Assembly (NCBI GenBank): GCA_963800255.1
Contig: CAWDAK010000016.1
Span: forward strand, 12,815 to 76,814
Source: an uncultured Ignavibacteria bacterium
Lineage (GTDB): Bacteria; Bacteroidota; Ignavibacteria; Ignavibacteriales; Ignavibacteriaceae
DNA: 64,000 bases
Direction: 5' to 3'
Below are positions 21,185 through 50,713 of the stretch, piece after piece. A model generated the notes under the pieces. The model did no database searches, was not told the origin of the DNA, and worked only from the letters and a program-made list of their open reading frames with translations. The translations under genes and the position numbers were made by a program. How positions within the stretch are numbered: the stretch's first letter is position 1; each line of letters begins with the position of its first letter.

Positions 21185-21214
21185 CTTTTTTCCAATAAAA
21201 ATTTATAAATCCTT

Positions 21215-22321
21215 CTACAATGAAACTTTGATACCGCCGCTTACAGCATAGCTGCTTAGATCAGTTTTACCGTCAGCACTGCCGATAACATACCTTAGCA
21301 TTACAGGAACAGAGATTGAGGATGATAGCTTGAACTGCGGGGATAAACGGATACCGTATAAAGTGTATCCTGAAAAATAACCTGCCGTCTTTTCATAAAG
21401 ACTTGTGAACAACCCGTACCCCAGTGAGAATGAGGCATTGAAATACTGGTTGTATGATGCATCAATATAAAACTGGTTGGGAGTTATTTTTTCATTATCA
21501 AGCACCGCGTTATCGCCTTTAAGTTCATCCAGTGCCACGTTCCTGTATAGCAGCCCTATGCTTAGGAAATCATATCCAAAAAACTGCCTGTACATAGAAT
21601 TGAAGATGATCCTGTTGCCTGAGGAAAAAACTTCCTTACCGTTAAGCTTATCACTGCCATAAAAGATGCCGATAAGATCACCGGAGATCGTCTGCGTTTC
21701 ACTGAGCTTTATATCCAGTCCTGCTGTAAGAGAGACCTCATTTGATGGTGCATATTTATAGTCTGCTATATTCAGGGGCTGATACTCTGACTTAAACTGG
21801 TAAGAAACTCCGGCACCAACTACTGCATCATCTGACAGCGGGTGAAGCCAGGTAGCCCCGATGAAAGCATTTAATCCCTGCCCGAAATTGGATGTCTTTA
21901 ATCCAAACAGTTCCTGGCTTACTACCTGCGAAACAGCGAATTCAGTAGGATTTAATTTTGTCTTCCCGGTCGGGATATTAAAGCCGGCATCGAATGACAG
22001 GTTCTCATCGGGCAATTTCTGGTTAACAAATAACTGCAGATCCGAAAGTCCGCTCAGGTCGCTGTTTATGCTTCCCAGTTTTGTGCTGGCCGAAGCGTAC
22101 CTTGTAACAAGTCCTACCGAAGTATTCGTAAGCGGATTATATCCCGCAGAAATAATATTTGTAAACTCTGAAAAATCAGAGCTGTCATTAACTGACCAGC
22201 TCTCATAAACCGGCATAATGTTTATGGTGGCATTGGGCCGCTGGTTGTAAATGTCCTGTGGATAACTGCTTACTGTAAGGACAAAAACGAGAAATAAAAT
22301 AATCTTAAAAAAACTTTTCAT
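21215..22321 (-). CDS. Putative outer-membrane beta-barrel protein
   Basis: Signal peptide. Alternating hydrophobic/polar strands with Y/G/S/N-rich turns throughout. No family recognised. Confidence 0.5.
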   Translation of the reverse strand: MKSFFKIILFLVFVLTVSSYPQDIYNQRPNATINIMPVYESWSVNDSSDFSEFTNIISAGYNPLTNTSVGLVTRYASASTKLGSINSDLSGLSDLQLFVNQKLPDENLSFDAGFNIPTGKTKLNPTEFAVSQVVSQELFGLKTSNFGQGLNAFIGATWLHPLSDDAVVGAGVSYQFKSEYQPLNIADYKYAPSNEVSLTAGLDIKLSETQTISGDLIGIFYGSDKLNGKEVFSSGNRIIFNSMYRQFFGYDFLSIGLLYRNVALDELKGDNAVLDNEKITPNQFYIDASYNQYFNASFSLGYGLFTSLYEKTAGYFSGYTLYGIRLSPQFKLSSSISVPVMLRYVIGSADGKTDLSSYAVSGGIKVSL

Positions 22322-22351
22322 AGTATATTCCTGTTATTAAAGGCTGAATCT

Positions 22352-23659
22352 TTAATTTCCCGGCGGAGGCGGGGGAGGGGGAGGAGGCGAGGGGAGGTCC
22401 TGGGCTACCACAGCTTCCTGCGCAGGACTACGGCTGTCGATTCCCTGCACAAAATTTGAAACTATATTGCTTCCCAGGTTTTCAAGCCGGCTTGCAGCCA
22501 GGTTAATCATTTCGTTCTTAACTACCGGCGCCGTTTTCCTTAATGTTGATACCAGGTTTTCTTTTGAACCTCCGCTTTTGCCAAGACTCTTGGACGACTG
22601 CAGTTTACTTCCCGCATCTTTGAAGCCGGGATCCATCTGTGAAGCCTGGTTAAAGAATTGTCCTGCCTGCTGAAAGTTTCCGGCATCTTCCTGCAAAAGA
22701 CCTTTTGAGTACGCAAGAAATGCTTCAAGGTTCTGCGTGGGTATGTAGGCTATGTTCTCTTTTTCTTCCTGGGTAAGGTTGAATCCGTTTTCCTGAAGGA
22801 AAGCAAATACTACCTGTTTCTGCAGGACGAACAGATCTTTAAGTGAACCTGATTTGTTTACCCACGATTTTCGCTGGCTTGAAGGGACTTCCCACGAACC
22901 TAAATTAATATTAAAGTCGCCGTCGTCATTCACATCGTAATCCCCGGATACGATCATACCGGCTTTCAGTATTTTACCTACACGAGGCGCGGTGGACTGA
23001 TCTACAGCGTCAGATTGCGCAAGTTTCAGTTCATCAAGAACAGCCTGTATTCTCACTCTTTCAAGTATCTTAATTTCTTTAAGCTTAGCAAGATCGATGC
23101 TTACCATTTCACTGAACCCCCTGCTTAAAGGGGCATAGTCCTTATTAGTTCCCTGGTAAATCAGCGGGAACACTGCCATTGTACTGTCTGATATTTTCTG
23201 TATAGCAATCTCATTTTCATTCTGGATCAGCAGCTTAATATCGGAATAGTTTTCCTGGCGTTTTATCCAGAGATATCTTCCTTCCAGCATTTCCCTGAAG
23301 GGCGAATCTTCGGGAACCGATTTATATCTCGCATAGTAAGCAGCGGCTTTTCCCTGCTCATCGTAAAATTCAAGGTTCAGGCCTTTATAGAAAATGAGTT
23401 CGGGGTCATCGGGATTTATCTCCATTGCCTCCCCGAGGTAGTACCTGGCCTTGTCGTTGTCATGTGTCTGCATATAATAAATGCTCAGGTTTTTCAAGGC
23501 TTCAAAGTCTTTCGGGTTTGCCAGGGTCCTGTCAATCCATCCCCGCACCTGGTTCCTGTACATTTCAGGATTATCCATAAGTGAACCCGAAGAACACGAA
23601 TTGAGGACAAGCATAAGCAGCAATGCAGCAGCGGGAAATAAGAATTTAATCTTTTTCAA
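22352..23659 (-). CDS. Lipoprotein: TPR - CsgG/LpoB-like domain - TPR, with a polyproline tail
   Basis: Lipobox LVLNSCSS. Central MAVFPL.YQGTNKDYAPLSRGFSEMVSIDLAKLKEIKILERVRIQAVLDELKL...VGKILKAGMIVSGDY fits the CsgG-family pattern. C-terminus PSPPPPPPPPPGN. Colinear paralog of 23682..24704. Confidence 0.6.
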   Translation of the reverse strand: MKKIKFLFPAAALLLMLVLNSCSSGSLMDNPEMYRNQVRGWIDRTLANPKDFEALKNLSIYYMQTHDNDKARYYLGEAMEINPDDPELIFYKGLNLEFYDEQGKAAAYYARYKSVPEDSPFREMLEGRYLWIKRQENYSDIKLLIQNENEIAIQKISDSTMAVFPLIYQGTNKDYAPLSRGFSEMVSIDLAKLKEIKILERVRIQAVLDELKLAQSDAVDQSTAPRVGKILKAGMIVSGDYDVNDDGDFNINLGSWEVPSSQRKSWVNKSGSLKDLFVLQKQVVFAFLQENGFNLTQEEKENIAYIPTQNLEAFLAYSKGLLQEDAGNFQQAGQFFNQASQMDPGFKDAGSKLQSSKSLGKSGGSKENLVSTLRKTAPVVKNEMINLAASRLENLGSNIVSNFVQGIDSRSPAQEAVVAQDLPSPPPPPPPPPGN

Positions 23660-23681
23660 ATTTCAACCTCGTTTATATCAT

Positions 23682-24704
23682 TTAAAGCAGCGGCGCTATG
23701 CTTTGAGCTTTTAGTTTAGCCTTCTCATAACCCGGATCAATTTTCAAAGCTTCCTCAAATTTCTCGTACGCATTTTTATAATCTTCTTTTTCAAGGTAGC
23801 TTAATCCCACTGAGTAAGCCATAATAGCATCGAGTGAAGGGGCCTGTGAAACATCCTGCGGCGTCTCCTTCTTTAACGTTACGTTGATGTTATCCGCTAT
23901 TTTCTTCCCCAACTGATCGGTAAGATCAAAAAATTCATCAAGGTCACCCTTTACTTCATCCGTTAGTAGTATCTCGCTGGTTTCAACCTTAACAAGCCGT
24001 GCGCCAAGCCAGATCTGGTCGCCCATAATAATGAAACTTCCCAGCATCACTGTCTGCACACCCAGCTGTTTCCCCAGCCTAACCGCGCCTTCCATATCAT
24101 TTTCGTTCTGAAGCTTTATTTCATCCAGGATCCATTTGATCCTTTCTCTTTCGATAACTTTCAGGTTGGTGGAGTTGTTAAGCCTGTTTATCATAAGATC
24201 CGCAAAACCCTGCTCCATCGGATCATATTGTAACTTATGATCAACCGACCTGTTCTTGAAATCTATTATTGCCATTGTCTTCATTCCCGGATCGGGTCTT
24301 TCAACTGCATAAGATCCCTCGAACTCTTTGCGTGATTCATAATAGAGTTTCATAAATACAGGCGGTTCATAATCGGGATTGAAAACCATCATCGGCGGCT
24401 CAAGTTTGAGAAGCTGAGCTATTGCTTCCTTTGCCTTATCATATAAACCCTTTGCGGAATAGGCCCTGCCAAGGAATCTGAGGGCGTCCTTTCTTATTTC
24501 AATATCCGCTGAATTATCTGAAGCGAGACCGTTCAATATCTCAATAGCATTATCAAACTTTGCTGATTTGTAATACTGCTCAGCCTGGTCAAGCTTTTCT
24601 TTGGAGTCATTTTGTGCATAGACTGCAGACACCATTAAAAGAAAGAATATTGCAAAAAAGAACATGGACATACGTTTACCCGTATGTAATTGTTTATAAC
24701 ACAT
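23682..24704 (-). CDS. Secreted TPR - CsgG/LpoB-like domain - TPR protein (paralog of 22352..23659)
   Basis: Signal peptide ending VYAQ. MAIIDFKNRSVD...GFADLMINRLNNSTNLKVIERERIKWILDEIKLQ...LGKQLGVQTVMLGSF, with flanking TPR-like helices. Confidence 0.6.
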   Translation of the reverse strand: MCYKQLHTGKRMSMFFFAIFFLLMVSAVYAQNDSKEKLDQAEQYYKSAKFDNAIEILNGLASDNSADIEIRKDALRFLGRAYSAKGLYDKAKEAIAQLLKLEPPMMVFNPDYEPPVFMKLYYESRKEFEGSYAVERPDPGMKTMAIIDFKNRSVDHKLQYDPMEQGFADLMINRLNNSTNLKVIERERIKWILDEIKLQNENDMEGAVRLGKQLGVQTVMLGSFIIMGDQIWLGARLVKVETSEILLTDEVKGDLDEFFDLTDQLGKKIADNINVTLKKETPQDVSQAPSLDAIMAYSVGLSYLEKEDYKNAYEKFEEALKIDPGYEKAKLKAQSIAPLL

Positions 24705-24755: not shown

Positions 24756-26481
24756 TTATTTGAAATGGAATACCAGCGAGTGTGTTTGAGGCTCAAGAGA
24801 AGGGGAGATGATCAGCTGAATATCATTTTCAACTGTGCGGTATCCTGTTTTCTTAACTGTTATTTTATAAGTTCCGGGTCCAAGGTTAAGGTCGCCGGGG
24901 GTAGTTTTATCTGTGCTCTGTCCGTTTAAGTATATTACACCCCATATAGGATCGCCGGAACTGCTTAATGACTGTATGTTCACCTGCTGCTGGAAATAAC
25001 AGGTAAGCTCTTTGCTCTGGCTGCCGCCGACGTTTACGGAAAATGTTTTTGTACCAAATTCGGGATGAGTAAATTTTATTGTATGCTTCCCTGACTCAAC
25101 TGTGTTTCTTATCTTTTCATCGGAGTCAGTCAGCACCTTGCTTCCGTCAATATAAATGCTTGCCGCCGGTACAGAACTAAGTGTTAAAGTAGCTTTTGCC
25201 GTGGGAGTCTTTGCCGCCTGCAATTTAATGTTTAGTTCATTCCTGCCGTTATTAACCAGGTACCCGGCATCCTGCCAGTCATCGTAGCCGTTTAGTTTAA
25301 GCATAATTGAATAGCGTGCAACGGATAGTGAATCAAGTGAATAAGGAGTTATGCCTGCCATCTTTCCATTTATGAAATACAGAGGCTCCGGATGGATCCG
25401 AATTTACCAAGAGGCGGGCAGGAATTATTTTTTTCTGATTATCAATTAATATCGTTCCTTTGTTATCCTTAATCTCCTCAGGTTTGTTACCGGTAATAAA
25501 ATAAACCGAAATCAGAAGAACTATTAATATCAGTGCGGCCCCTGCGATATAAATTTTCTTCCTCCCGGATGGTGACGGGGGTTTATTCTCCTCGTGCGTC
25601 TGTTCGTACCTCGACATAATCCTGGTTTTTTCTTCTTCATCTGCAGCTTCCAGCCTGATACCGGTGAGTACTGTGAACATTTCCCCGGTACTCTGGAATC
25701 TTTTTTCAGGCTCCTTATCTATTGCTTTCATTATTACTTTAACAAGTTCCTTCGGGATAAGGGGATTATATTTGGTGGGCGGCGGTATCTTTCCCTCCAC
25801 AATCTGTTTCTGAATAACGAATTCAGATTCTCCCTTTTCGAACGGCGTTCGGCCTGCAAGCATTTCGTACAGGGTCATTCCGAGTGAATAGATGTCGCTC
25901 CTCTTGTCGACATTTTTTAACCCTTTTACCTGTTCAGGCGACATATAATATAAAGTACCTGCAGCGGCATGCGTAACAGTATTCTGTGTCCCGCCCTCCT
26001 GGATGACCTTGGCCAGACCAAAATCCATCACCTTTACTGTACCGTCTTCGTTAAGCAGAACATTGTTGGGTTTAATGTCGCGGTGTATTACTCCCACCTT
26101 ATGTGCGTGCCTGATTGCATTGATTATCTGTGAGCCTATGGCTATTGTCTCTGCGGCGCTGAACCTTCCTTTCTCCCTTAACCATTCTGAAATAGTTTTT
26201 GCGCTGACATACTCCATAACCATAAACAGACCGTATTCAGTTTCCCTGAGTGCATGCACACCAACTATATTCTGATTCTCAAGCCGTGCAAGAGCACGAG
26301 CTTCGGTTTTAAATCTCTGCAGAAAGTTTTCATCTCTTGAAAGAAAAGGATCAATCATCTTTAAGGCAACTAACTTTTCAAGGTTCATATCCATTGCCTT
26401 GAAAACTACCCCCATTCCTCCGCGCCCTATTACCTCGAGGATTTTATAATTATCAACTTCCTTACCTATTAACTGATCCAT
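24756..26481 (-). pseudogene. ppkA: Hanks-type Ser/Thr kinase (PpkA-like) with TM helix and a three-PEGA-domain ectodomain, split by a +1 frameshift
   Basis: GRGGMGVVFKA, HRDIKPNNVLL, DFGLAK and YMSPE. TM helix IYIAGAALILIVLLISVYFI. ORF 25333..26481 ends ...VNSDPSGASVFHKWKDG*. Dropping one base gives ...SGASVFINGKMAGITPYSLD, which joins ORF 24756..25361 (PEGA-like repeats, e.g. GTYKITVKKTGYRTVE). 26481-25361 = 1120 = 3n+1. Confidence 0.85.
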
Positions 26482-26487: not shown

Positions 26488-28353
26488 TTAATCCAGTTTT
26501 GTTTTTCCGCTGAGTAAAATATTCTGAAACTTTGCTGATGAACTTTTATCGACATAAATACCTGCCTTGCCGAAAATACCCCACACACTCTTGTAGGAAC
26601 TTATAAGTCCGTTCTGATCATAAATGCTGATTAGATTGTCTGAGTAAATTATTTTCATCTTCCTTTTGGAAGATTCGATATCCGTCGGCCGGATTACAAG
26701 AAGTTTTTCAATTTCATTTCCCTTGATTCTCTGCAGGGTGTAATTGCCGCCATCCCTGTATTTGAAAATATAATAATCGTTGGGAGAGATATAGCCTATA
26801 ATCAAACCGAGTATTGCATTACGGTTATCGATTTCGGTATTCACAGTTAACGTTACATCAAAAAAATCTTTGTTATAGATTATATATTTTTCACTTAAAG
26901 TATTTGTAAAGCTGAGCTCATCATTGTTAATGGTGAACTCGTTCTTATTTATTCCGGGGAAAGCCCATGCCGATGATCTAAAATCTGAAGCTGTTATTTC
27001 CGGACCTGCTTCAGCTCCTGAGGGAGCCGTTGTTTCTGCTGACGTAGAATCGGTTCCCCGGGCCTTACCCGGGAGCTGACTCGTACAGAGCCTGATGAGT
27101 CCACGGATCTTTTCATTTCCCGGTCTTACTTCTTCTGCCTTTTTATAATATTTCAGGGCACCTTCAAAATCTTTTTCATTCATCAATCTATCGCCGATGC
27201 CGGAATATGCAGAAGCAATCTCATTTACTCCGTCTAATGCTGCCTGATGCATCGGCTGGCCGTCCAGTATTGCCCTGTATATTGAATAAGCATGCTCATA
27301 ATCTTTTTTCTTAAGCAGCTTATCGGCTTCATCAAGTAATTTTGTTTCCGACTCATCAATATTAACGGTCGGCTTCAGTACGTTCACTTTTTCATCCGCG
27401 GGATTCTTAACAGTAAGGTGTGCGGTTTCCACTTGTGAGGCTGTAAATAATGAATCCCTGAACGCAATAAAAAGCAGAACGAGGATAATCAAAAGGACGA
27501 TAAAAATGCCGGGCCAGACGTTCCTTTTTTTCTTTGGAGGCTTTTCCTTATTCTCTTTAACTTGTTTTACTGGAGTAGTTTTTGGAGCTTCTCCTCTAGC
27601 GATTTTTACTATGATAACTGTAACGTTATCTTTTCCGCCGCGCTCATTGGCAAGGTCTACAAGTATATCGCAGGCATCATCTGCATTATTATCAGATACA
27701 ATTTTCAGTATTTCTGCCTGACTTACCTTTGCAAGTCCGTCCGAGCAAAGGATATAGCTTTGTCCTGACCTTAATATTATATCCTCTATTATATCGATCT
27801 TAACCTTCTCATCTACTCCCAGGGCCCTGGCAAGTACAGATTTGGAGGGATAATTTTCCGCTTCCTCCGGTGTGAGAATGCCCCCCCTTAACATTTCCTG
27901 TACCTGTGTGTGGTCATCTGTGAGCTGTTCTATAGCTCCGTTTTCAATTCTGTATATTCTTGAATCTCCAACGTGTCCTATTATGCCTTTTTCCTCTTTA
28001 AGGACCAGGGCAGAACATGTAGTTCCCATTCTTCCAATTTCTGATTTATCACCTGATTCATTATAAATGGCACTATTCGCTCTGTCGATTGAATTTCTTA
28101 GTGCAGCCGGTTCTTCATCAGAAGAAGAAAAATATTCCTCGTTCACAACTCTCACGGCAATTGTACTTGCTTCTTTACCGCCTTTATGGCCTCCCATTCC
28201 ATCCGCCACTATGAACAATTGTCCCTTTGGCGAATAAAGATCTGTACTGTCTTCGGGAAATTTCCCGTGACTATCCTGGTTTTCAGTTCTTACGAGTCCG
28301 ATATCAGACTTTTTCGAGAAGACTATATATAATTTATTATCAGAAGAAGGCAT
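26488..28353 (-). CDS. pppA: Receptor-like PP2C Ser/Thr phosphatase (PppA-like): PP2C - TM - TPR - C-terminal beta-rich domain
   Basis: FIVADGMGGHKGGKEAS, GHVGDSRIYR, LCSDGL and ERGGKDNVTVIIV are PP2C blocks. TM helix WPGIFIVLLIILVLLFIAF. TPR-like YEHAYSIYRAIL..., then ~170 aa of beta-rich sequence. A paralog lies at 62470..63999. Confidence 0.85.
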   Translation of the reverse strand: MPSSDNKLYIVFSKKSDIGLVRTENQDSHGKFPEDSTDLYSPKGQLFIVADGMGGHKGGKEASTIAVRVVNEEYFSSSDEEPAALRNSIDRANSAIYNESGDKSEIGRMGTTCSALVLKEEKGIIGHVGDSRIYRIENGAIEQLTDDHTQVQEMLRGGILTPEEAENYPSKSVLARALGVDEKVKIDIIEDIILRSGQSYILCSDGLAKVSQAEILKIVSDNNADDACDILVDLANERGGKDNVTVIIVKIARGEAPKTTPVKQVKENKEKPPKKKRNVWPGIFIVLLIILVLLFIAFRDSLFTASQVETAHLTVKNPADEKVNVLKPTVNIDESETKLLDEADKLLKKKDYEHAYSIYRAILDGQPMHQAALDGVNEIASAYSGIGDRLMNEKDFEGALKYYKKAEEVRPGNEKIRGLIRLCTSQLPGKARGTDSTSAETTAPSGAEAGPEITASDFRSSAWAFPGINKNEFTINNDELSFTNTLSEKYIIYNKDFFDVTLTVNTEIDNRNAILGLIIGYISPNDYYIFKYRDGGNYTLQRIKGNEIEKLLVIRPTDIESSKRKMKIIYSDNLISIYDQNGLISSYKSVWGIFGKAGIYVDKSSSAKFQNILLSGKTKLD

Positions 28354-28374: not shown

Positions 28375-29862
28375 TTAATTTTTCAAAGTCTGCAGAGCAT
28401 CCTTTAATGGGTCAGTGAAATCAAATCCGAACAACGCGGGATTTTGGCCAATTACCGCAGCAGAGAAAATATAAAAAACATAATTGTATGTTTCATCGGG
28501 AATTTTATCCCTGTACTTAGCAAGGAGGTTCCAGAAGTTCCTGTCTTTCGGGTTGGCGGGAATTTTTCGGATCAGGTCGATAATATTATACTCTCCCCAA
28601 TTATAAGACGCCATCACGAGCAGTCCCGAAGCCTGGGCATCGGTGTTATAAATATCTTTAAGATAGCGCGAAGCAGCACTTGTGGCTTTGGGAAAGTTAT
28701 ATCTATCGTCACCGGGGTCATAAACACTCTCGTTTGAAAGCGGCCCGATAGTAAGACCGTACTTCTGAGCTGTAGCAGGTATAAACTGCCAGATTCCTTT
28801 GGCATATCCGTACCTCGTCTGCGGTCCCACTATCTGGTCACGGAAGTCGCTTTCCTGGAGCGCCAGGTAAAAAAACTGAGGCGGAAGGTCCTGCCTTACC
28901 AGGTAATTTACCACCACCTGTGCGTAGCCATTCTGATTTGCACGGTCAAGAGCTTTCTGCAGTCTCTGGCTCGACTTCCACTTGCTTATATAACTTTTTA
29001 CCTCGTCAATGAAATCTTTCGGCATAGTTAGTTCACACTCACCGAAAGCCCGTGCTGTTTTAATTATCAATTTTTCATCAGGAGCCAGATCATACGTGCC
29101 CAGCTGATCAACAAGCTTGTCATAGTTTTTCTGCAGTTCGTGTCTGCGTTCATCAAATTTCTGCAGAGCCTTAATTATTTTCGGATCCCCCGAAGATGCA
29201 AGATCATGTTTCAGTGATTCTATTTCAAGCTCAAGTGATTTCATATCATAGAAAATATTTTCAGCAAGGGCTTTCTGCTTGTTCTCTTTTATATTCTGGT
29301 AAATAGAGTATGCCGCAGCAATAACCGCAAGCAGTCCTACTACCGCTATTACCTTAATATATTTTGAAGTGTGTTTTTTCTTAACAACTTTGAAAGCTTC
29401 ACGCATAAGGCGGGTGTGTTCACCTACCTGGTCGTCGCTCTTCGATTCGTCGAAATAATGCTGAATATAACTGGTAACGGAAGGATCTTTTAAGGAATCA
29501 GATTTTACTGCGGGAACAGCTTCTTTTTCCTCGAATGAAAATATAAGTACCGGACCATTATTCCCCAGCTCAAGCGTGGTTGTTGCTTTTAATTCGATGT
29601 TCTCGATTTTTTTCCCGTTGAGGAATGTACCGTTGCTGCTGTGCTTATCAGATACCCACCATTTTTCCCCGTCGAAGATAACTTCAACATGAACCCTGCT
29701 TACAACCCCCTCATCAATTGTGATGGAACAATCTTCAGATCTTCCGATAGTGAAAGTTTTATCAAAATAAAATTCCTTCTGCGGGCAGTTCCCCTTTTCT
29801 ATCTTAACTTTGATAATCGTATTTGATAGGGAAGGAGATTCGCTTAATTGTGTGCTGTTCAT
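28375..29862 (-). CDS. FHA domain - TM - coiled coil - SLT-family lytic transglycosylase fusion
   Basis: FHA: FTIGRSEDCSITIDEGVVSRVHVEVIF..KWWVSDKHSSNGTFLNGKKI. TM: YIKVIAVVGLLAVIAAAYSIY. SLT: LALQESDF, YAKGIWQFIPATAQKYGL and MASYNWGEYN. Confidence 0.8.
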   Translation of the reverse strand: MNSTQLSESPSLSNTIIKVKIEKGNCPQKEFYFDKTFTIGRSEDCSITIDEGVVSRVHVEVIFDGEKWWVSDKHSSNGTFLNGKKIENIELKATTTLELGNNGPVLIFSFEEKEAVPAVKSDSLKDPSVTSYIQHYFDESKSDDQVGEHTRLMREAFKVVKKKHTSKYIKVIAVVGLLAVIAAAYSIYQNIKENKQKALAENIFYDMKSLELEIESLKHDLASSGDPKIIKALQKFDERRHELQKNYDKLVDQLGTYDLAPDEKLIIKTARAFGECELTMPKDFIDEVKSYISKWKSSQRLQKALDRANQNGYAQVVVNYLVRQDLPPQFFYLALQESDFRDQIVGPQTRYGYAKGIWQFIPATAQKYGLTIGPLSNESVYDPGDDRYNFPKATSAASRYLKDIYNTDAQASGLLVMASYNWGEYNIIDLIRKIPANPKDRNFWNLLAKYRDKIPDETYNYVFYIFSAAVIGQNPALFGFDFTDPLKDALQTLKN

Positions 29863-29877
29863 TCTGTAAAATTAATA

Positions 29878-30465
29878 CTATTTATCAGGATTAAAACTCA
29901 GCATCATCCTTACGATTGCCGGTCCGATTGTCTGCCTAGTCTTTTTTGTAAATGAGGCTGTCAGTTTATAAGCCTTTTTATCGTGAAAAGTGTAAACCTG
30001 GTGCTGGTAAATTCTATAATCATCCAGCGGGTACCAGCTGAAAATAGCCTCGTAGGCTTCAGCCCCATTCGTCAGTTCGGTTTCGCCCTTTTTAAGAAGC
30101 GTGCAGCCCTTCAGCTCTTCTTCGAGGGTTTTTATATGCCATTCGGCATAATCCTGAAGGCTGTCGATAGTGTTTTCGTTATCAACTGTAATTATAACGT
30201 TATGCTGAATACCATCTGTTACAGGTCCGTTTATAGTGTAAATGGTTTTATCTTCCCACTCTTCAAGCTGGTTTACTATGAACCCGTTTCCCTGGAATAC
30301 AACTGTTTTATCCTGCGGGGCAGCTGGTTTTGATTCCTGCTTTGCAGGATGCTTCTGCGGTGGTGCTTTGGGCTGCTCTGTTTGCGGAGCTTCCGGAGTT
30401 TTTTCCTCCTTCTTCTCCTCAGCCGGCTGATTTTGAAACTGCCGGTAATAATCTGGTATTTTCAT
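29878..30465 (-). CDS. DUF1795/DcrB-like protein (possible Eag-type T6SS effector chaperone) with a Pro/Lys/Glu-rich N-terminal region
   Basis: GFIVNQLEEWEDKTIYTINGP...HNVIITVDNE...SLQDYAEWHIKTLEEELKG..LLKKGE..L.NG.EAYEAIFSW......IYQHQVY.F.DKKAYKLTASF follows the DUF1795 layout as I recall it. Confidence 0.4.
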   Translation of the reverse strand: MKIPDYYRQFQNQPAEEKKEEKTPEAPQTEQPKAPPQKHPAKQESKPAAPQDKTVVFQGNGFIVNQLEEWEDKTIYTINGPVTDGIQHNVIITVDNENTIDSLQDYAEWHIKTLEEELKGCTLLKKGETELTNGAEAYEAIFSWYPLDDYRIYQHQVYTFHDKKAYKLTASFTKKTRQTIGPAIVRMMLSFNPDK

Positions 30466-30483: not shown

Positions 30484-31335
30484 TTATGGACGGGGGGTAA
30501 GCTGCACAACAGCTCCTTCCGTGAAACATTGATCATTAATGTTCTCATCAAGCTTGTAAAAGTTAATGGGACAAAGCATATGTTCGCCCATCAACTCAAA
30601 ATCCGCCGTTGAAGGTTCTCTTCCGGCACCATTACTGGCAAGAGTTTGTACACCTGAAACATCATGCATGCTGCCTGTTAGCGCATTTCTCCAACGGGGA
30701 TTGTTTGGACGGTTATCTGTCTCTGTTTTACAGTGAGCTATTTCATGGAATGCTGTGGTTGCAAGGCTGTTTGCCAAAAGAACATCCCAGTTTGTGGCTT
30801 CAAAGTTTTGCCTCGCATCGCTGAATACACAAGCAGTTACCGGGTATGAGATTCCGGATATACCGGGGAGTGAAAGTCCGTTATGCTCCCCCAAACTACT
30901 CAGAGTCGACCGCTGTTCGCTTACCCAGCTCTGCGGAAATTCCTGGCTTCGGGCGTTTTGTAAAGCATTCAGCATTATATATTCGGGGCGGCGGTCAATC
31001 TCGTCGGCAGGTGTTGAGTCAAGCACCCGGGTTGTAAAGTATACTATGGGCTCGCCTATATTCACAGTAATACCGCTGAAATCCGGGCTCACAGGGTTGC
31101 CGGGCAGGGAGGGTATTCTTATAACGTTAATCGTCTGATCCCTTGAATCACGATGCGGGATGTGTGCTTTAGATTGATCCATCAGGTCGATCAGCTTTGT
31201 TCGGAACCCGTCAAATATTCCCTGGACTACAGCTGAATCAACTCCGGGAGATTCCAGGATTACTCCTGTTGCTCCGGAGGAAGCCCTAATCCTTAATGGC
31301 TTAATGACAAAATAATAAATGTTATAAACAGGCAA
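30484..31335 (-). CDS. Hypothetical protein with HExxH motif (candidate metallopeptidase-type toxin)
   Basis: TTAFHEIAHCKTE is the only motif. No signal peptide. Amino-acid and GC composition differ from the neighbours. Confidence 0.35.
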   Translation of the reverse strand: MPVYNIYYFVIKPLRIRASSGATGVILESPGVDSAVVQGIFDGFRTKLIDLMDQSKAHIPHRDSRDQTINVIRIPSLPGNPVSPDFSGITVNIGEPIVYFTTRVLDSTPADEIDRRPEYIMLNALQNARSQEFPQSWVSEQRSTLSSLGEHNGLSLPGISGISYPVTACVFSDARQNFEATNWDVLLANSLATTAFHEIAHCKTETDNRPNNPRWRNALTGSMHDVSGVQTLASNGAGREPSTADFELMGEHMLCPINFYKLDENINDQCFTEGAVVQLTPRP

Positions 31336-31365
31336 TTGGCTGCTTTCGTTCCGGAGGTTAATATG

Positions 31366-32232
31366 TTACTGTATTTCAAAAGATTCCAGGTATTCGTGAA
31401 TTTCAGGAATTGTCATTTGTGAATATTTCCAAAGAAGTGTGCTGTGCTGCTCGAACGGGTGATGGAGCAAGGTAGTCCATTTGCGCCATAAATGGTGGTC
31501 TGACTGATCTACAATCGTTTGTCCTGCTGAACCTTCAGGTCCTTCAAATCTGTTGACCCGGGGATTCTGTGTCGAGTGACCTACTGTTTTATGTGCGTCA
31601 ACCCGGCAGTTGGGACAATGACGTACCAGACTGTCCCTTAAGTGAGCAGCGAAGCTATCGTCTGTGTCTCCCGCTGAACAAGCATAAAGCACAATTTTTA
31701 CATCAGGTTTTGAAATCCTTGCGATTGCCTGTGCAAGTGCATCTGTATCATTCATTTCCGTTGATTGATATGTAATTTGCGTGTTGGTTCTGAAACCTAT
31801 CTGTATACCGGCATGCCAGCCGTGACAGAAGAAAGCAATAACACTTACATTCTCTCCTGAAGGAAAGCTGTCCAGTACATCAAGGACTTTCCTCTTCATC
31901 TGTGCTGCAGAGACCGGATTTTTTATCTCGCCATGTACTTCTTCGCATTCACCATTGTCTACAATGTAAGTTGATTCATAAGGAGCGAAGTTGTAGTATG
32001 AGAAGTACCATGTTTCCGGCATAAACGCACCGCCGACATCGTTTGTCCTGTCGGGTTTGCAGCATCTCAGTCTGAAACTCAATATATCGCTCCTTGTAAT
32101 CAGGCTGCTGGAATCCGACGACCTGTCGATTCTGCTTGCTCTTCTGGTAAGCCCTCTGTATATCCGTTCTTCAGGATCAGTCCATCCTTCGTCTCCCCAT
32201 GCACATCTATGATGAGCTTCAGTTGCACACAT
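31366..32232 (-). CDS. Hypothetical protein; a His...Cys pair in beta-strand contexts hints at a caspase-like fold
   Basis: VSVIAFFCHGWHAG and VKIVLYACSAGD resemble the His and Cys strands of clan CD peptidases. The true start is uncertain (alternative Met at MPETWYF). Confidence 0.3.
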   Translation of the reverse strand: MCATEAHHRCAWGDEGWTDPEERIYRGLTRRASRIDRSSDSSSLITRSDILSFRLRCCKPDRTNDVGGAFMPETWYFSYYNFAPYESTYIVDNGECEEVHGEIKNPVSAAQMKRKVLDVLDSFPSGENVSVIAFFCHGWHAGIQIGFRTNTQITYQSTEMNDTDALAQAIARISKPDVKIVLYACSAGDTDDSFAAHLRDSLVRHCPNCRVDAHKTVGHSTQNPRVNRFEGPEGSAGQTIVDQSDHHLWRKWTTLLHHPFEQHSTLLWKYSQMTIPEIHEYLESFEIQ

Positions 32233-32249
32233 TATAATTCCGGATTAAT

Positions 32250-33539
32250 TCAAAATTTCTCATTTATTTTTTGTCTGAGTTCCCCGTCAATATCTCCCGA
32301 TACAGTCATATTATTGTCTTTCCTGAAATTCCTAACTGCTTCTGCCGTCATTGCTCCTGCCTCACCGTCTATCCTTCCTGCATAGTAGCCGAGGTTCTGC
32401 AGTCTTTCCTGAATTCCTGCTGTACTATCGTCCGGTTCAAGATCTGTCAGCTGCAGTATTGTACTAAATGAAGGGCGATCCTCACCGTCCCTCAGCCAGA
32501 ACAAAAGTTTAGCCTGAAGAATATTTGGGGGAATTTGCTCCTGCAATAGTCCGTCACCGTCGGTGGTCCCTGCTTTTACTTTTTGTCCATATCTTAGTTC
32601 ATATTTTTTATTTGAGTACTTGTTGCCGTCGGGGTCCTTCATATATATCTTTATTGTCTTATCGGCGGGAGGTTCAGCCTCAGATGTCTCTTCTTCATTA
32701 TCATCTTCAAGAACTATTTTATAGGGACCAGGGGGTGCATCTTCAAACAAGTACCTTCCGTCTCCGTCAAAAGTTTCTTGCTTTTCCTCTCCGTCTGCAG
32801 TCACAATCTTGAATTTCTGGTTTGCTGCAGGCTGGCCGTTCTCATATCGCCATACTATTTCCACGGTATCTTTGAACTTCAGCAAGCCTGAATCTTCAGA
32901 AACTCCGGCGATAGTCACTCTGAAAAAATATTCGGGATTATTGTAGCCGTTCTCAGCTTCATTGTCATCGGGAATATCGTCGGTATCCTCTACATACTGA
33001 AATTCCCATTCTGTTTTGATTTTCTGACTCTTAACGAGAGCGGGGAATGATACAACAAGATCGTGTGCACCGTCATTGTCGTGTTCAAAAATTTCAATCG
33101 TCGTCTCAGCTCCATCATATGCTCCTTTAACATCCGCTGTTAGTTTCAGGATGTCGCCTCGCCGGGCTTCATTCTTATCCCACTTCAGGTTTGATATTTT
33201 TATGGGCGGGAGCAGAATAATTGAATTCGACTTTTTCTCGAGTCCAAGTTTTGAAAGTTTTGCAGTTGCTGTTAACTCATCCTTCAGGTTTTCGGGGATG
33301 TCGATGGATTTCCAGAAACGATTGCCTGTAATTTTTCCCTTAACGGTTCCGCCTGATTTACCGGATTTATCCTTGATCTCAATTTTGATCTCAGAATTAT
33401 TTCCTACAAACTTCGTAAATACATCTATCCCGATTTTACCGCCGGCTGAAGCCATATTCTTAGTAAATACAACCTGCTCAATCAAAGATTCGAGCTTTAC
33501 TTCTTTAACTTTTCCGGTCTGGCCTGATTGTTTTTCCAT
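32250..33539 (-). CDS. Multi-Ig-like protein with C-terminal peptidoglycan-binding domain (PG_binding_1)
   Basis: C-terminus GIQERLQNLGYYAGRIDGEAGAMTAEAVRNFRKDNNMTVSGDIDGELRQKI. The middle ~170 aa are colinear with the C-terminal extension of the PAAR protein. No signal peptide. Confidence 0.6.
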   Translation of the reverse strand: MEKQSGQTGKVKEVKLESLIEQVVFTKNMASAGGKIGIDVFTKFVGNNSEIKIEIKDKSGKSGGTVKGKITGNRFWKSIDIPENLKDELTATAKLSKLGLEKKSNSIILLPPIKISNLKWDKNEARRGDILKLTADVKGAYDGAETTIEIFEHDNDGAHDLVVSFPALVKSQKIKTEWEFQYVEDTDDIPDDNEAENGYNNPEYFFRVTIAGVSEDSGLLKFKDTVEIVWRYENGQPAANQKFKIVTADGEEKQETFDGDGRYLFEDAPPGPYKIVLEDDNEEETSEAEPPADKTIKIYMKDPDGNKYSNKKYELRYGQKVKAGTTDGDGLLQEQIPPNILQAKLLFWLRDGEDRPSFSTILQLTDLEPDDSTAGIQERLQNLGYYAGRIDGEAGAMTAEAVRNFRKDNNMTVSGDIDGELRQKINEKF

Positions 33540-33541
33540 AA

Positions 33542-34717
33542 TTACTTTTGAGGACTCAGTAAATATATACTGCTTTCAGTAGCAGCAATGATTTCATTAT
33601 TCACATTCACTATAGGGGGAGTGGTAAGCCTCTCTCCCGGAAACTGGAAGATAAATTGTCTCTCTCCTGATTCGTCTATCTGCATTATATACTCCCCTTC
33701 AGAGAGTAATAGTTTATTGTCAGAAGTAACAACAGCTCCTCCGGTTTCTCCTGTTGTAAATGTCTGCCACCTTAGTTTTCCGTCTTCAGTATAACTGAAA
33801 ACACGATCGTTGAACACCAAAAATATACTGTGATCGTATGCCACTATAGGTGGAACCAAATTCTGCTTGTCTTCAACAGGTATCTTTGTATCCACAAGCA
33901 GTTCGCCTTCAGGGGAAACTACCCATAATGCAAGTTTATTTTCTGAATTTATAACTGTCATATAAATTCTGCCGGATTCATCAAGACTTAAGGTAACAGG
34001 GGTGAACTCTCCGTCAATTTCAGATTTTAATGCGAGGTCCATTCCTGAAATTATAATTTTGTTATTAATTGCACAGACAAAAGTATTTTTATTTGCGGCA
34101 GAAGCTGAATTACCCGCAGAAAAGAAAGTCTGGTTCAATTCTTTATATGAAGTAAGATTTCCGTTTTCTATAATAGGAGGGTCATCAATTGCATAAGATT
34201 CCAGTAGAATAAACCTGTTTGGAGAAGGATTGTGAGGATTTTTATTTACAATATTATCTGCAATCAGAAAACTACCATCGTTCCTGTATATGAATTTCCT
34301 TTCTACATCCTCCAGCCCGTTTACCTGCATACTGTACAATTTTTCATGTGAGGATAATTCAACCGCAGTGATCTGTCCGAGCCTGTCAGCGTAATAGAAT
34401 AGTCCGTGCTCTGCATCGAATATAATATCACTATTACCCAGGAAATCCGCCGCTTCTGATTTTCCTCCGGCGTCAAGCAGCTGCCATCTACCGGAGCCGA
34501 ATGCAACGAAATTGTCATTTGCTGTAAGTATAAAATCGGCAGGGAAGAATGGATCGATGGGAATCTTCCATTTAATTTCCAGCGGTTTATAAGTAACCTT
34601 AACCGGGATTCTGGAGTTCAGCATTTCATTGGCGAAGGGACGCGGATAATTATTTCCGGCCTTTTCCTCTTTATAACCTGGCAGCGATACAAAATTTCCG
34701 GAGTTTATTATTGTCAT
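33542..34717 (-). CDS. Hypothetical beta-rich (propeller-like) protein, candidate periplasmic immunity protein; the true start is probably upstream
   Basis: Immediately downstream of the 1291-aa candidate effector. The in-frame upstream sequence 34718..34813 encodes IKLVIIYKALLLILLPVFITWAQD, a textbook signal peptide, with no ATG/GTG/TTG. Confidence 0.45.
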   Translation of the reverse strand: MTIINSGNFVSLPGYKEEKAGNNYPRPFANEMLNSRIPVKVTYKPLEIKWKIPIDPFFPADFILTANDNFVAFGSGRWQLLDAGGKSEAADFLGNSDIIFDAEHGLFYYADRLGQITAVELSSHEKLYSMQVNGLEDVERKFIYRNDGSFLIADNIVNKNPHNPSPNRFILLESYAIDDPPIIENGNLTSYKELNQTFFSAGNSASAANKNTFVCAINNKIIISGMDLALKSEIDGEFTPVTLSLDESGRIYMTVINSENKLALWVVSPEGELLVDTKIPVEDKQNLVPPIVAYDHSIFLVFNDRVFSYTEDGKLRWQTFTTGETGGAVVTSDNKLLLSEGEYIMQIDESGERQFIFQFPGERLTTPPIVNVNNEIIAATESSIYLLSPQK

Positions 34718-34809
34718 TTTTTTAATATGGTTTTGATTTAAATCCTGCGCCCACGTAATGAAAACAGGAAGAAGAATTAAAAGTAATGCCTTATATATTA
34801 TTACCAGCT

Positions 34810-38685: not shown

Positions 38686-38693
38686 ACTTAAGA

Positions 38694-39767: not shown

Positions 39768-39786
39768 TATTAAATTTCCTTATTCG

Positions 39787-41922: not shown

Positions 41923-42099
41923 TGGGGTACCTTTTTCAGTTTACAATTAAAAATTAGCAATTATCAATTAACGAAATGAATGGCTTCGCAGTCGTTTAGC
42001 GGCTGATTAAACGGAGAGAATCACGAAATAATAACTGGCTGTATATTCCGGATAATCAGCTTTAAGGATCAGGCCGGTATCTGACCAGGACTGATGTTC

Positions 42100-44724: not shown

Positions 44725-44767
44725 GTAATTCTCCAGTTATATTATTAAAAATTCGGGTATATAAAAC

Positions 44768-48059: not shown

Positions 48060-48089
48060 TGTTGATTGTACTTTTAGTCAATAAAGAAC

Positions 48090-48137
48090 AGGGTGGATTA
48101 TAACACTATAGAATAGTCGTAAATAATTCCACCCTGG
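48090..48137 (-). terminator. Stem-loop immediately downstream of hcp (candidate attenuator/terminator or processing site)
   Basis: CAGGGTGGA at 48090..48098 pairs perfectly with TCCACCCTG at 48129..48137, with a 30-nt loop. It lies in the 92-nt hcp-tssE gap and is followed on the sense strand by TTCTTTATT. Confidence 0.35.
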
Positions 48138-48151
48138 TAAAATAGGTTTAC

Positions 48152-48640: not shown

Positions 48641-48699
48641 GACTAACCTCCGATTAAGTTTAAGTTATAGTTGATTTATATGAATGAATTAATGAACAA

Positions 48700-50166: not shown

Positions 50167-50210
50167 TTTAATTAAACCTCCGTTAACAAAAATTAAATTT
50201 CAATAATATT

Positions 50211-50711: not shown

Positions 50712-50713
50712 AA

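Follow-up and report, generated by a model that had tools for sequence, protein, structure and literature searches.

To our knowledge, no enzyme for crossing the producer's own cell wall has been assigned to the majority of T6SS loci, and Ser/Thr-kinase control of wall-cleaving enzymes has so far been described chiefly in Gram-positive bacteria and mycobacteria. In monoderms, wall control by Hanks-type kinases is represented by the mycobacterial fhaA-fhaB(fipA)-pstP...pknA-pknB operon with CwlM and MviN, and a further case of Hanks-kinase control of cell-wall enzymes is the pneumococcal StkP with MltG/MpgA. For the T6SS, the crossing of the own wall by the membrane complex is known for two systems only, MltE in enteroaggregative E. 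coli and TagX in Acinetobacter. MltE is a lytic transglycosylase which is recruited by TssM and opens the peptidoglycan for the T6SS membrane complex; the T6SS locus does not encode this housekeeping enzyme, which becomes active once it contacts the membrane complex (Santin and Cascales 2017, reviewed in PMC13584744). TagX, whose gene belongs to the T6SS cluster, is a VanY-type L,D-endopeptidase acting on the L-Ala-D-Glu bond; anchored in the membrane, it carries its peptidoglycan-cleaving domain at the C-terminal, periplasmic end, and its proposed task is to give the apparatus passage through the wall (PMC5061870). A 2026 review of T6SS accessory genes names only these two as enzymes that remodel the own wall for assembly (PMC13584744).

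The window, by which we mean the whole stretch of 64,000 nucleotides that was analysed, comes from an uncultured Ignavibacteria bacterium and encodes an FHA-TM-stalk-SLT protein, here called FHA-LT, which appears to be an inner-membrane-anchored, MltD-type lytic transglycosylase of predicted activity with a cytoplasmic, phospho-Thr-binding FHA end (Table 1). The protein is identical to P0001 of a public collection (ENA ERZ25039549, contig_33824, 392 kb). The combination of an FHA domain, a TM helix and an SLT domain is exactly as the initial annotation had noted, and Pfam recognises both domains: FHA (PF00498) covers residues 38-100 with 62.8 bits (cutoff 20.7; E 4e-17), and SLT (PF01464) residues 327-434 with 47.4 bits (cutoff 21.3; E 1.6e-12). 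Every motif quoted there, LALQESDF, GIWQFIPATA and SYNWGEYN included, is present in the protein. The FHA motifs are located at residues 40-41 (GR), 55-58 (SRVH) and 77-79 (NGT), and those of the SLT domain at 336-340 (QESDF, with E337-S338), from 356 (GIWQF; G356-x-W-Q-F360) and from 419 (SYNWG; S419-Y-N-W-G423). The initial annotation had made its reading depend on the catalytic Glu of the SLT domain, and this residue aligns and is invariant, together with the following Ser (E337-S338), in an alignment of 31 homologues.

Table 1. Location of the FHA-LT gene, the parts of its product and the neighbouring genes in the window.
Feature	Position	Strand	Description
FHA-TM-stalk-SLT protein (FHA-LT)	28375..29862	(-)	whole ORF, ATG start, 495 aa; Pfam FHA + SLT
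FHA domain core	29563..29751	(-)	residues 38-100; beta-sandwich 15-112 in AlphaFold2 model
Cytoplasmic juxtamembrane motif	29374..29475	(-)	residues 130-163; SYIxHYF...GEHT150-R-x-(M/V/I)-R-x-AF-KVVKKK
Single TM helix, N-in	29296..29358	(-)	residues 169-189; Kyte-Doolittle peak 2.37, basic cluster on N-terminal side
Periplasmic helical hairpin / stalk	29104..29295	(-)	residues 190-253; AlphaFold2
Family-specific helical region ahead of SLT	28894..29082	(-)	residues 261-323; invariant R271-x-F-G-E-C-E277
MltD-type SLT catalytic domain	28417..28884	(-)	residues 327-482; catalytic E337 at 28852..28854
Hanks-type Ser/Thr kinase + PEGA	24756..26481	(-)	Pfam Pkinase 9.5e-56, PEGA 6.2e-14
PP2C phosphatase, Stp1/IreP type	26488..28353	(-)	TM helix, TPR, C-terminal extracytoplasmic domain; Pfam PP2C_2 + PP2C
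DcrB/DUF1795-like protein	29878..30465	(-)	Pfam DcrB 2e-09; 15 nt upstream of FHA-LT start
T6SS type-i core block	38694..59416	(-)	TssJ, TssK, TssL, TssM (split), TagF, TssA, TssB, TssC, Hcp, TssE, TssF, TssG, ClpV, VgrG, PAAR
Canonical TagH/Fha	59431..60633	(-)	Pfam FHA 6.7e-15, T6SS_FHA_C 2.4e-05

The stretch KVVKKKHTSKYIK lies N-terminal to the hydrophobic helix (about residues 169-189), and by the positive-inside rule this basic stretch predicts a topology with the FHA domain in the cytoplasm and the SLT domain in the periplasm. What the initial annotation called a coiled coil is indeed a helical region; the AlphaFold2 model (mean pLDDT 75; 86-91 for residues 20-110) shows it as a helical hairpin, with helices at 166-221 and 227-253 and the TM helix running on into the stalk. 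The best NCBIfam FHA match is FhaB/FipA, and Foldseek matched the FHA domain to those of Rv1747, FhaA and GarA with TM-scores of 0.85-0.89 (target-normalised), the model and the search together giving the eleven-stranded beta-sandwich of the FHA fold. The cytoplasmic domain is also above the Pfam cutoff for Yop-YscD_cpl (PF16697; 41.7 against 33.2 bits), and YscD/PrgH of the T3SS shares the FHA-TM-periplasm layout. However, the periplasmic part of YscD is made of ring-building domains and holds no enzyme, whereas that of FHA-LT is a stalk with an SLT enzyme, and an assignment as a YscD/PrgH ring protein was therefore rejected.

Both in sequence and in fold, the best match to residues 308-482 is MltD (family 1D). 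A PDB sequence search aligned this part with P. aeruginosa MltD (8rhe), E-S on E-S, and Foldseek matched the C-terminal half to the same enzyme (8rhf) over 237-245 columns. The E-S catalytic motif, GxWQ, YNxG and a helical fold of the lysozyme type are common to the two proteins. MltD itself is a lipoprotein whose C-terminus bears LysM domains, and 8rhe was named a LysM protein in the PDB search. Unlike MltD, FHA-LT has no LysM match in Pfam, carries a TM helix instead of a lipobox, and possesses the stalk, the FGECE region and the cytoplasmic FHA domain. FHA-LT was not accepted as an MltD equivalog (49.4 bits to the NCBIfam MltD model against a cutoff of 508, no LysM, no lipobox).

The FHA+SLT architecture is far beyond chance, since more than 120 homologues have it in identical form and 260 clusters (50% identity) match FHA-LT with E < 1e-30. 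Conservation was evaluated in the alignment of 31 homologues and in 73 grouped sequences divided into four context groups. The phospho-Thr-binding residues G40, R41, S55, R56, H58, N77 and G78 are invariant in the 31 homologues and kept at more than 95% per site in each of the four context groups, and the SLT motifs G356-I-W-Q359 and Y420-N-W-G423 are invariant in both the homologues and the context groups. The columns of the R271-x-F-G-E-C-E277 motif are likewise invariant in the 31 homologues, and the motif is kept across all context groups. In the juxtamembrane segment I133, Y136, F137, G147, H149 and T150 are invariant in the 31 homologues, and T150 (29413..29415) is found in every context group, in 72 of the 73 grouped sequences, and a hydrophobic residue follows it at +3. 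From this sequence pattern T150 is a candidate phospho-acceptor or FHA ligand with a putative role as a phosphosite. Such conservation, with a hydrophobic +3 residue and beside an FHA domain, suggests self- or trans-association as in Rv1747 and Bdellovibrio DgcB, both of which rank high among the FHA matches of FHA-LT in sequence and in fold. In these two proteins the FHA domain binds phospho-Thr in the protein's own linker or tail, while phosphorylation of Thr150 in FHA-LT is putative; the output domains also differ, being an ABC transporter in Rv1747 and a diguanylate cyclase in DgcB.

Together with the Stp1-type PP2C phosphatase and the PknB-type membrane kinase, FHA-LT is part of a tight three-gene cassette within the T6SS operon. 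The gaps are 15 nt between the DcrB-like gene and FHA-LT, 21 nt between FHA-LT and PP2C and 6 nt between PP2C and kinase. A scan of positions 21000-40000 found no promoter-like or terminator-like site in the gaps around the FHA-LT gene; it gave 41 promoter-like sites against 38.5 in shuffled sequence and 25 terminator-like sites against 17.0 ± 4.0, i.e. counts at or barely above shuffled which add nothing to the short intergenic distances. The phosphatase scores 231.3 bits with NCBIfam Stp1_PP2C_phos (cutoff 230), and the NCBIfam top match of the kinase is the PknB/Stk1 kinase domain. PknB/Stp1-like pairs are the type of kinase and phosphatase that regulates the cell wall, and the kinase of one FHA-LT relative has a PASTA domain. 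A frameshift near 25361 splits the kinase gene of the window into ORFs 25333..26481 and 24756..25361, the orthologues being unbroken with 568-576 aa, and tssM is split around 55537-55770; this frameshift and the split tssM may mean that the T6SS is decaying, or they may be assembly errors. CsgG-like/TPR lipoproteins are conserved downstream. Directly upstream, the DcrB-like gene is found in this position in at least 15 loci and is absent from the Melioribacteraceae locus. Its product was rejected as an Eag-type chaperone, as it matches no solved Eag structure in sequence and the PAAR protein is devoid of TM segments.

All 13 type-i T6SS core genes together with TagH and TagF were found by Pfam in the same strand block. 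The locus is in this respect similar to the pathway of TagH/Fha1, PpkA (TagE) and PppA (TagG), where an FHA protein, a Hanks kinase and a PP2C are likewise present in the T6SS locus. Since a genuine TagH is present in the cluster, FHA-LT is a second FHA reader and not the Fha protein of the system; TagH is soluble and cytoplasmic with T6SS_FHA_C, whereas FHA-LT carries a periplasmic enzyme domain. In line with this, FHA-LT was rejected as TagH/Fha1 (TIGR03354), which it matches with its FHA part only (38.2 bits against a cutoff of 120.25).

In the Ignavibacteria and Melioribacteraceae the trio of FHA-LT, PP2C and kinase is constant and the effector cargo upstream is swapped. An Ignavibacteriales locus has the gene order of the window, while Melioribacteraceae (54% identity) show ClpV, VgrG, other cargo (DUF2169/pentapeptide, DUF3540, Tox-PAAR-like), FHA-LT, PP2C and kinase in this order. 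In the Ignavibacteria-like clade PP2C and kinase are present in all 22 loci with full flanks, and in 26 of 27 loci FHA-LT is followed immediately by PP2C. The T6SS link of FHA-LT thus holds in the Ignavibacteria/Melioribacteraceae lineage. Of 25 more distant loci with full flanks (Acidobacteriota, Desulfobacterota), 12 carry T6SS core genes no farther than 10 kb from FHA-LT, a figure that is a lower bound because TssB, Hcp, TssE and TagF were undetectable with the iterated profiles (at most one match each); in about half of the distant loci no T6SS gene was detected within 10 kb. The profiles were iterated from phmmer/hmmsearch alignments, and the high-GC Acidobacteriota loci, where greedy ORF picking is sometimes antisense, were judged by profile matches and selected Pfam scans. 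As a rough estimate, a random gene would have about a 1% chance of T6SS adjacency (window of 30-50 kb, genome of 4-6 Mb). Other phyla show rearranged orders, such as TssF-TssG-ClpV-VgrG-TssK-FHA-LT, TagH-FHA-LT, and FHA-LT-PP2C adjoining TssM-TssL-TssK, and at four loci (L043, L048, L063 and L077) FHA-LT stands beside T6SS core genes with no kinase detected. The association with the T6SS that the initial annotation had put forward is borne out by this recurrence across phyla despite rearranged gene order, which speaks against a lack of enrichment near T6SS genes.

Nevertheless, the architecture is no T6SS-specific invention. At least 584 genome stretches from Ignavibacteriota, Acidobacteriota, Desulfobacterota and others encode a relative of FHA-LT. 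One clade, with all motifs kept, is located in a peptidoglycan-recycling neighbourhood (NamZ, Amidase_3, SpoIID, MFS transporter), standalone copies lie beside the housekeeping genes RuvAB or LeuA, and one genome has both a T6SS-linked FHA-LT and a second, T6SS-free PP2C-kinase-FHA-LT module. Some relatives have two FHA domains. A comparison of per-region identity between T6SS-linked and standalone distant groups gave no T6SS-specific signature, all regions diverging equally, so a T6SS-specific interaction surface is not evident. In P0218 and P0262, found on three contigs, a Pkinase domain replaces FHA on the TM-stalk-SLT module, with 39% identity over 320 aa including the TM helix, and P0262 retains region 261-323 with FGECE changed to LGETD. 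This swap of kinase for FHA gives independent Rosetta-stone support for kinase coupling. Such kinase-LT fusions are compatible with either direction of signalling. Judged from its sequences, the family is a widespread and uncharacterised one in which a TM-stalk-LT module appears to be wired to Hanks-type Ser/Thr signalling, usually via FHA. The proposal of the initial annotation that FHA-LT is an enzyme for T6SS assembly fits its position within a complete T6SS operon, but it does not extend to the family as a whole, with its recycling, standalone and T6SS-free members. The tie to PpkA signalling is supported as far as the adjoining PP2C and Hanks kinase and the kinase-LT fusions are concerned; the pair itself is PknB/Stp1-like and does not consist of clear PpkA/PppA orthologues.

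Compared with the known wall-opening enzymes, FHA-LT has the same role as MltE, though for FHA-LT this role is only proposed, and differs from it in being encoded in the operon and in having its own phospho-Thr reader. With TagX it shares a gene in the T6SS cluster, a membrane anchor and a periplasmic C-terminal peptidoglycan-cleaving domain, but TagX is no glycan-strand transglycosylase and has neither FHA domain nor kinase link. Membership of the TagX family was rejected, as Pfam shows no peptidase domain and the catalytic domain is SLT. FHA-LT is encoded and conserved in T6SS clusters, as would be expected of a dedicated peptidoglycan-remodelling factor of the TagX/MltE class, though it is not exclusive to the T6SS. 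EtgA/IpgF (T3SS), VirB1 (T4SS) and FlgJ/SltF (flagella) are comparable as machine-encoded transglycosylases acting locally (PMC5061870), but these are small soluble or secreted proteins without signalling domains. The monoderm systems also have a PknB/Stp1-type pair and FHA readers which govern peptidoglycan enzymes; there, reader and enzyme are separate proteins, whereas in FHA-LT they are fused across the diderm inner membrane and encoded in a secretion-system operon. The initial annotation had presented the link as not known to be described, and in the full-text literature we found no report of an FHA-SLT fusion or of an Ignavibacteria T6SS, and the only enzymes that the 2026 review gives for remodelling of the own wall are MltE and TagX.

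On balance we favour, with somewhat better than even confidence, the reading that FHA-LT is a kinase-coupled lytic transglycosylase which has been recruited here for T6SS-associated cell-wall opening. An unlikely but serious alternative is a general kinase-regulated housekeeping transglycosylase of wall growth, turnover or recycling which travels with the kinase and phosphatase, the T6SS using the kinase pair via TagH with no need of the transglycosylase. The occurrence of the same architecture in the NamZ/Amidase_3/SpoIID/MFS neighbourhood, beside housekeeping genes and in a T6SS-free PP2C-kinase module is in line with such a function, as are the PknB/Stp1-like character of kinase and phosphatase and the T6SS-linked copies being without a distinguishing sequence signature. 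This is countered by the retention of FHA-LT in the T6SS operon of T6SS-linked clades over about 50% sequence divergence despite cargo replacement, and by its position adjoining core genes of the T6SS in other phyla, where the clusters are rearranged, including the four loci where the kinase was undetected. Moreover, the separate non-T6SS copy in one genome suggests that the T6SS copy is specialised.

The direction of signalling could also be the reverse. By analogy with TagQRST-PpkA, the envelope-stress input to the T6SS in Pseudomonas, the SLT domain might sense or process damaged peptidoglycan, e.g. after attack by a neighbour, and the FHA domain might scaffold or activate the kinase, so that the T6SS is switched on via TagH. 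The transmembrane layout, with peptidoglycan binding at one end and cytoplasmic signalling at the other, would suit this, and so would the co-encoded membrane kinase and phosphatase with extracytoplasmic PEGA, TPR or PASTA domains, the conserved downstream CsgG-like/TPR lipoproteins and the presence of TagH and TagF. We consider it quite improbable, as the invariant catalytic Glu-Ser and SLT motifs argue for a working enzyme and not a pure sensor, and FHA domains normally act after the kinase, as readers. That FHA-LT is itself a T6SS-delivered, Tge-like peptidoglycan-degrading effector, encoded where the VgrG-PAAR cargo region ends and with the DUF1795/DcrB-like protein as chaperone, is hardly credible, even though many T6SS effectors are muramidases and the gene follows VgrG, PAAR and variable cargo, with a DcrB/DUF1795-family gene as its direct upstream neighbour. 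What speaks against delivery is that the protein is anchored N-in in the membrane and has its FHA domain in the cytoplasm; Pfam detects neither a PAAR, MIX or Rhs domain nor a VgrG fusion in FHA-LT, the next gene is no immunity gene, with PP2C beginning 21 nt downstream, and conservation and synteny of FHA-LT are high while the true cargo varies. In addition, family members are found without any T6SS, and the DcrB-like protein has no sequence match to solved Eag chaperones and is missing in Melioribacteraceae.

Returning to the kinase-coupled transglycosylase, a working scheme can be outlined. The kinase, switched on via its extracytoplasmic PEGA domain, would make phospho-Thr sites, candidates for which are the kinase itself, membrane components of the T6SS and the juxtamembrane Thr150 of FHA-LT. 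Docking of the FHA domain on phospho-Thr would then concentrate or activate the transglycosylase at that spot, and local cleavage of glycan strands would let the TssJLM membrane complex and the sheath-tube assemble through the wall, the same signal being read by TagH on the cytoplasmic side. The PP2C phosphatase would provide the reset. Within this scheme, the choice of phospho-ligand and a dependence of T6SS assembly on FHA-LT are points that we infer. FHA-LT may be an undescribed route for opening the cell wall upon a phosphorylation signal.

It is tempting to go further and, tentatively and with rather less than even confidence, to view FHA-LT and TagH as the two FHA readers that serve a T6SS threonine-phosphorylation switch, in which one kinase event recruits TagH and also clusters or activates the transglycosylase, possibly via Thr150, thus gating wall opening in time and place; the family would then be the first direct route from Hanks kinase to peptidoglycan cleavage in diderms, repeatedly recruited by T6SS clusters. 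If the proposed function is true, a T6SS-operon transglycosylase with its own phospho-Thr reader would be a third solution to wall crossing, and it would represent the first mechanistic tie of wall opening to the kinase/phosphatase switch that controls T6SS firing. More broadly, the family points to widespread and unstudied wall-cleaving enzymes under Ser/Thr-kinase control in poorly studied diderm phyla.

The initial annotation had seen an FHA domain, a transmembrane helix and an SLT domain in FHA-LT, and this was borne out by Pfam searches, in which the FHA domain (residues 38-100, E 4e-17) and the SLT lytic transglycosylase domain (residues 327-434, E 1.6e-12) both scored well over the curated cutoffs. 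All motifs quoted there were located, namely GR (40-41), SRVH (55-58) and NGT (77-79) on the FHA side and QESDF (336-340), GIWQF (356) and SYNWG (419) on the SLT side. The protein has only one hydrophobic helix (residues ~169-189), and since the basic cluster KVVKKKHTSKYIK precedes it, the FHA domain is predicted to be cytoplasmic and the SLT domain periplasmic. An AlphaFold2 model built from 31 homologues (mean pLDDT 75) has an FHA beta-sandwich (15-112) followed by a disordered linker, a helix (148-163), a long helix containing the TM segment (166-221), a return helix (227-253) and an all-helical C-terminal half. In Foldseek comparisons the N-terminal domain resembles the solved FHA domains of Rv1747, FhaA and GarA (TM-score 0.85-0.89), and the C-terminal half resembles P. 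aeruginosa MltD (8rhf, 237-245 columns). A PDB sequence search also matched residues 308-482 to P. aeruginosa MltD (8rhe), with E337-S338 placed on the E-S of MltD.

Among the 31 homologues aligned, with identities down to 50%, the phospho-Thr-binding residues of the FHA domain (G40, R41, S55, R56, H58, N77, G78) and the SLT motifs (E337, S338, G356, W358, Q359, F360, S419-G423) are invariant, as are a cytoplasmic juxtamembrane motif (I133, Y136, F137, G147, H149, T150) and a periplasmic motif, R271-x-FGECE277. In an alignment of 83 sequences these features are kept across every genomic context. Of the 73 sequences placed in a context group, 72 have Thr150, and position +3 is invariably occupied by M, V or I. 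Bacterial FHA domains commonly favour a hydrophobic residue at +3, which makes Thr150 a candidate phospho-ligand. Self- or trans-binding of Thr150 would resemble that of Rv1747 and DgcB; their FHA domains rank among the nearest matches to that of FHA-LT.

Coupling to phosphorylation is also suggested by domain exchange among the representative relatives. Two of them (P0122, P0198) carry two tandem FHA domains, and in two others (P0218, 746 aa; P0262, 661 aa) FHA gives way to a Pkinase domain. P0262 is 39% identical to residues 171-488 of FHA-LT; the TM helix, stalk, FGECE-like region and catalytic QES motif all fall within the aligned part. Such kinase-LT fusions occur on three contigs (P0218 at loci L088 and L089, P0262 at L087). 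The cytoplasmic end of one and the same TM-stalk-LT module can thus carry either a kinase or a kinase-reader domain, and by a Rosetta-stone-type argument this suggests a module that operates with Hanks-type phosphorylation.

The FHA-LT gene and the T6SS genes lie in a single long co-directional block on the minus strand, from ~60.6 kb down to 17.5 kb. Within it the FHA-LT and PP2C genes are 21 nt apart, and the PP2C and kinase genes 6 nt.

Genes of the T6SS block and its surroundings, in order of transcription
Feature	Position	Strand	Remarks
Second PP2C	62470..63999	-	upstream of T6SS cluster; PP2C-TM-TPR-C-terminal domain; seems to overrun window end
ParE toxin / Phd-YefM antitoxin pair	61324..61933	-	between second PP2C and TagH
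TagH	59431-60633	-	first gene of block
TssJ	58970-59416	-	PF12790, 1.2e-19; follows TagH
TssK, TssL, TssM (two ORFs), TagF, TssA, TssB, TssC, Hcp		-	in this order after TssJ
TssM	53294..56831	-	broken, gap 55537..55770; N-terminal ORF 353 aa, C-terminal ORF 747 aa
TssE, TssF, TssG, ClpV, VgrG, PAAR		-	in this order after Hcp
1291-aa protein, several unknowns, PG_binding_1 protein, DcrB/DUF1795-like protein, FHA-LT		-	in this order after PAAR
Cargo	30484..39767	-	PAAR protein with C-terminal extension, 1291-aa protein with weak OmpA match, PG_binding_1 protein, three unknowns
DcrB/DUF1795-like protein	29878..30465	-	Pro/Lys/Glu-rich N-terminus, without signal peptide; 15 nt 5' of FHA-LT gene
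FHA-LT	28375..29862	-	495 aa
PP2C phosphatase	26488..28353	-	TM helix, TPR repeats; after FHA-LT
Hanks kinase with PEGA domains	24756..26481	-	after PP2C; two overlapping ORFs (382, 201 aa), junction near 25333..25361
Putative envelope genes	17561..24704	-	after kinase; two CsgG-like/TPR proteins, unknown 368-aa protein, 1207-aa protein with T9SS C-terminal sorting domain

Against NCBIfam models, the PP2C barely exceeds the Stp1/IreP equivalog cutoff (231.3 vs 230 bits), and PknB/Stk1 is the nearest model for the kinase domain. FHA-LT scores below the TagH cutoff (38 vs 120 bits) and therefore counts as a second FHA protein in the cluster rather than as its Fha. The split of the kinase gene is a one-base frameshift within the first PEGA motif (SDPSGASVF / INGKMAGITPYSLD), and the fusion is intact (568-576 aa) at five orthologous loci (L005, L006, L007, L011, L012); the split reflects an assembly error, or else the gene has recently become a pseudogene. 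The break in TssM falls inside a domain, by a lysine-rich, A-rich stretch, the N-terminal ORF covering positions 2-153 of 259 of the IcmF-related_N profile, and is probably another frameshift or assembly error. The second PP2C is a paralogue of the one beside FHA-LT, and both share a C-terminal domain of unknown family.

The DcrB/DUF1795-like gene lies at the same place in at least 15 loci, one of them of Acidobacteriota (L063), and is absent in Melioribacteraceae. It may encode an Eag-like chaperone or a partner protein of FHA-LT; no sequence match to solved Eag structures was found. The putative envelope genes follow the kinase in almost every Ignavibacteria locus, which suggests that the T6SS has a larger attached envelope module; this might act as a sensory input or supply a T9SS-exported partner.

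The FHA+SLT architecture was present in 120/120 of the best database matches, the named sources being MAGs of Ignavibacteriaceae, Ignavibacteriales or Melioribacteraceae; the window corresponds to ENA ERZ25039549 contig_33824. The data are drawn from MAGs throughout. An exhaustive search of 50%-identity representatives gave 260 clusters at E < 1e-30, and scanning a single genome for each GTDB species yielded at least 584 genome stretches encoding a relative, the matches listed including Acidobacteriota (Bryobacterales, Terriglobia), Desulfobacterales, KSB1, Caldithrix, Nitrospirae and Aminicenantes. Searching 84 loci with the window proteins and iterated profiles, and counting on the 80 genome-scan loci (L005-L084), we found both PP2C and kinase in 22 of 22 full-flank loci of the Ignavibacteria-like clade, with PP2C as the immediate 3' gene in 26/27 loci of that clade. 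In distant clades (~47% identity) a kinase or phosphatase was present in 13/25 full-flank loci, and T6SS core genes lay within 10 kb in 12/25, a lower bound given the 10-kb flanks and thin profiles. The chance of a random gene lying as near a T6SS cluster is about 1%, our rough estimate from cluster and genome sizes rather than a computed value. Gene order differs among the distant loci (for instance, TssF-TssG-ClpV-VgrG-TssK-FHA-LT; FHA-LT-PP2C beside TssM-TssL-TssK; TagH-FHA-LT).

An Ignavibacteriales chromosome has the gene order of the window. Melioribacteraceae (54% identity) show the order ClpV, VgrG, DUF2169/pentapeptide, unknown, DUF3540, Tox-PAAR-like, FHA-LT, PP2C, kinase-PEGA, and another lineage has DUF3540, Tox-PAAR-like, PASTA kinase, further genes, FHA-LT, PP2C. 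From lineage to lineage the cargo that separates VgrG from FHA-LT is swapped, and the FHA-LT/PP2C/kinase cassette is fixed. The Melioribacteraceae counterpart of the window cargo (L001 4498..9981) comprises the DUF2169/pentapeptide, DUF3540 and Tox-PAAR-like genes, and such lineage-specific cargo likely represents uncharacterised effector or immunity sets. The kinase of one T6SS-cargo-linked relative bears a PASTA domain (L085 1652..3595); Gram-positive kinases use PASTA to bind peptidoglycan or lipid II, and a PASTA kinase is unusual for a diderm.

The proposal in the initial annotation that the fusion serves T6SS assembly stands in part, in that linkage to T6SS and kinase genes is real and recurrent; the family is broad and has housekeeping members, so the architecture is no invention exclusive to T6SS. 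A separate clade (L039, L046, L050, L065, L073, L083) has a conserved peptidoglycan-turnover neighbourhood of NamZ exo-muramidase, FHA-LT, DUF4922, GT2, MFS transporter, Amidase_3, SpoIID and GcpE (L050 8596..19823), and several Acidobacteriota and Deltaproteobacteria copies are standalone, adjoining RuvAB, LeuA-like, DUF885 or HpaB genes. Chromosome CP070707 has two copies, one T6SS-linked (L035) and one without T6SS (L075), the latter in a module of SpoIIE/PP2C, kinase-TPR and FHA-LT adjoining ExbB/TonB genes. By per-region identity, distant members linked to T6SS and those standing alone cannot be told apart in any segment of FHA-LT.

A purely housekeeping kinase-regulated transglycosylase, with only the kinase in common with the T6SS, would fit these relatives; set beside the recurrent T6SS linkage, we regard this as unlikely. 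The co-encoded kinase would also suit a damage sensor feeding the kinase, which we hold to be distinctly improbable. That FHA-LT is a secreted peptidoglycan-degrading effector hardly seems credible, even next to variable cargo, as its anchor is N-in, it has neither delivery domains nor an immunity gene, its own position is conserved, and T6SS-free relatives exist. FHA-LT is best described as a membrane-anchored MltD-type lytic transglycosylase whose location or activity would be set by Ser/Thr phosphorylation through its FHA domain, and which most plausibly has been recruited into the T6SS operon here to open the sacculus for TssJLM. Firing of the co-encoded kinase would produce a phosphorylation read by the FHA domain, the ligand being perhaps the kinase, TssL or TssM, or Thr150 of FHA-LT itself; the enzyme would then cut the sacculus open for the TssJLM complex, as assembly would require, and PP2C would reset the switch.

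PknB/PstP/FhaA-FhaB and StkP-MltG govern wall enzymes in monoderm bacteria and are functionally similar to FHA-LT, as are the specialised transglycosylases of T3SS, T4SS and flagella; unlike in the monoderm systems, reader and enzyme are here fused across a diderm inner membrane. Two enzymes are described as letting a T6SS apparatus cross the wall: MltE, a housekeeping enzyme encoded outside the T6SS locus and activated by the membrane complex (PMC13584744), and TagX, a membrane-anchored L,D-endopeptidase encoded within it (PMC5061870). Assignment of FHA-LT as TagH, an MltD equivalog, TagX or a YscD-type ring protein fails in each case on a defining feature. An FHA-linked transglycosylase is missing from a 2026 catalogue of T6SS accessory genes (PMC13584744), and full-text literature searches pairing FHA with SLT or lytic transglycosylase brought up no relevant paper. 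FHA-LT belongs with the machine-associated lytic transglycosylases and adds a regulatory fusion that is directly testable and of which these searches turned up no published description.
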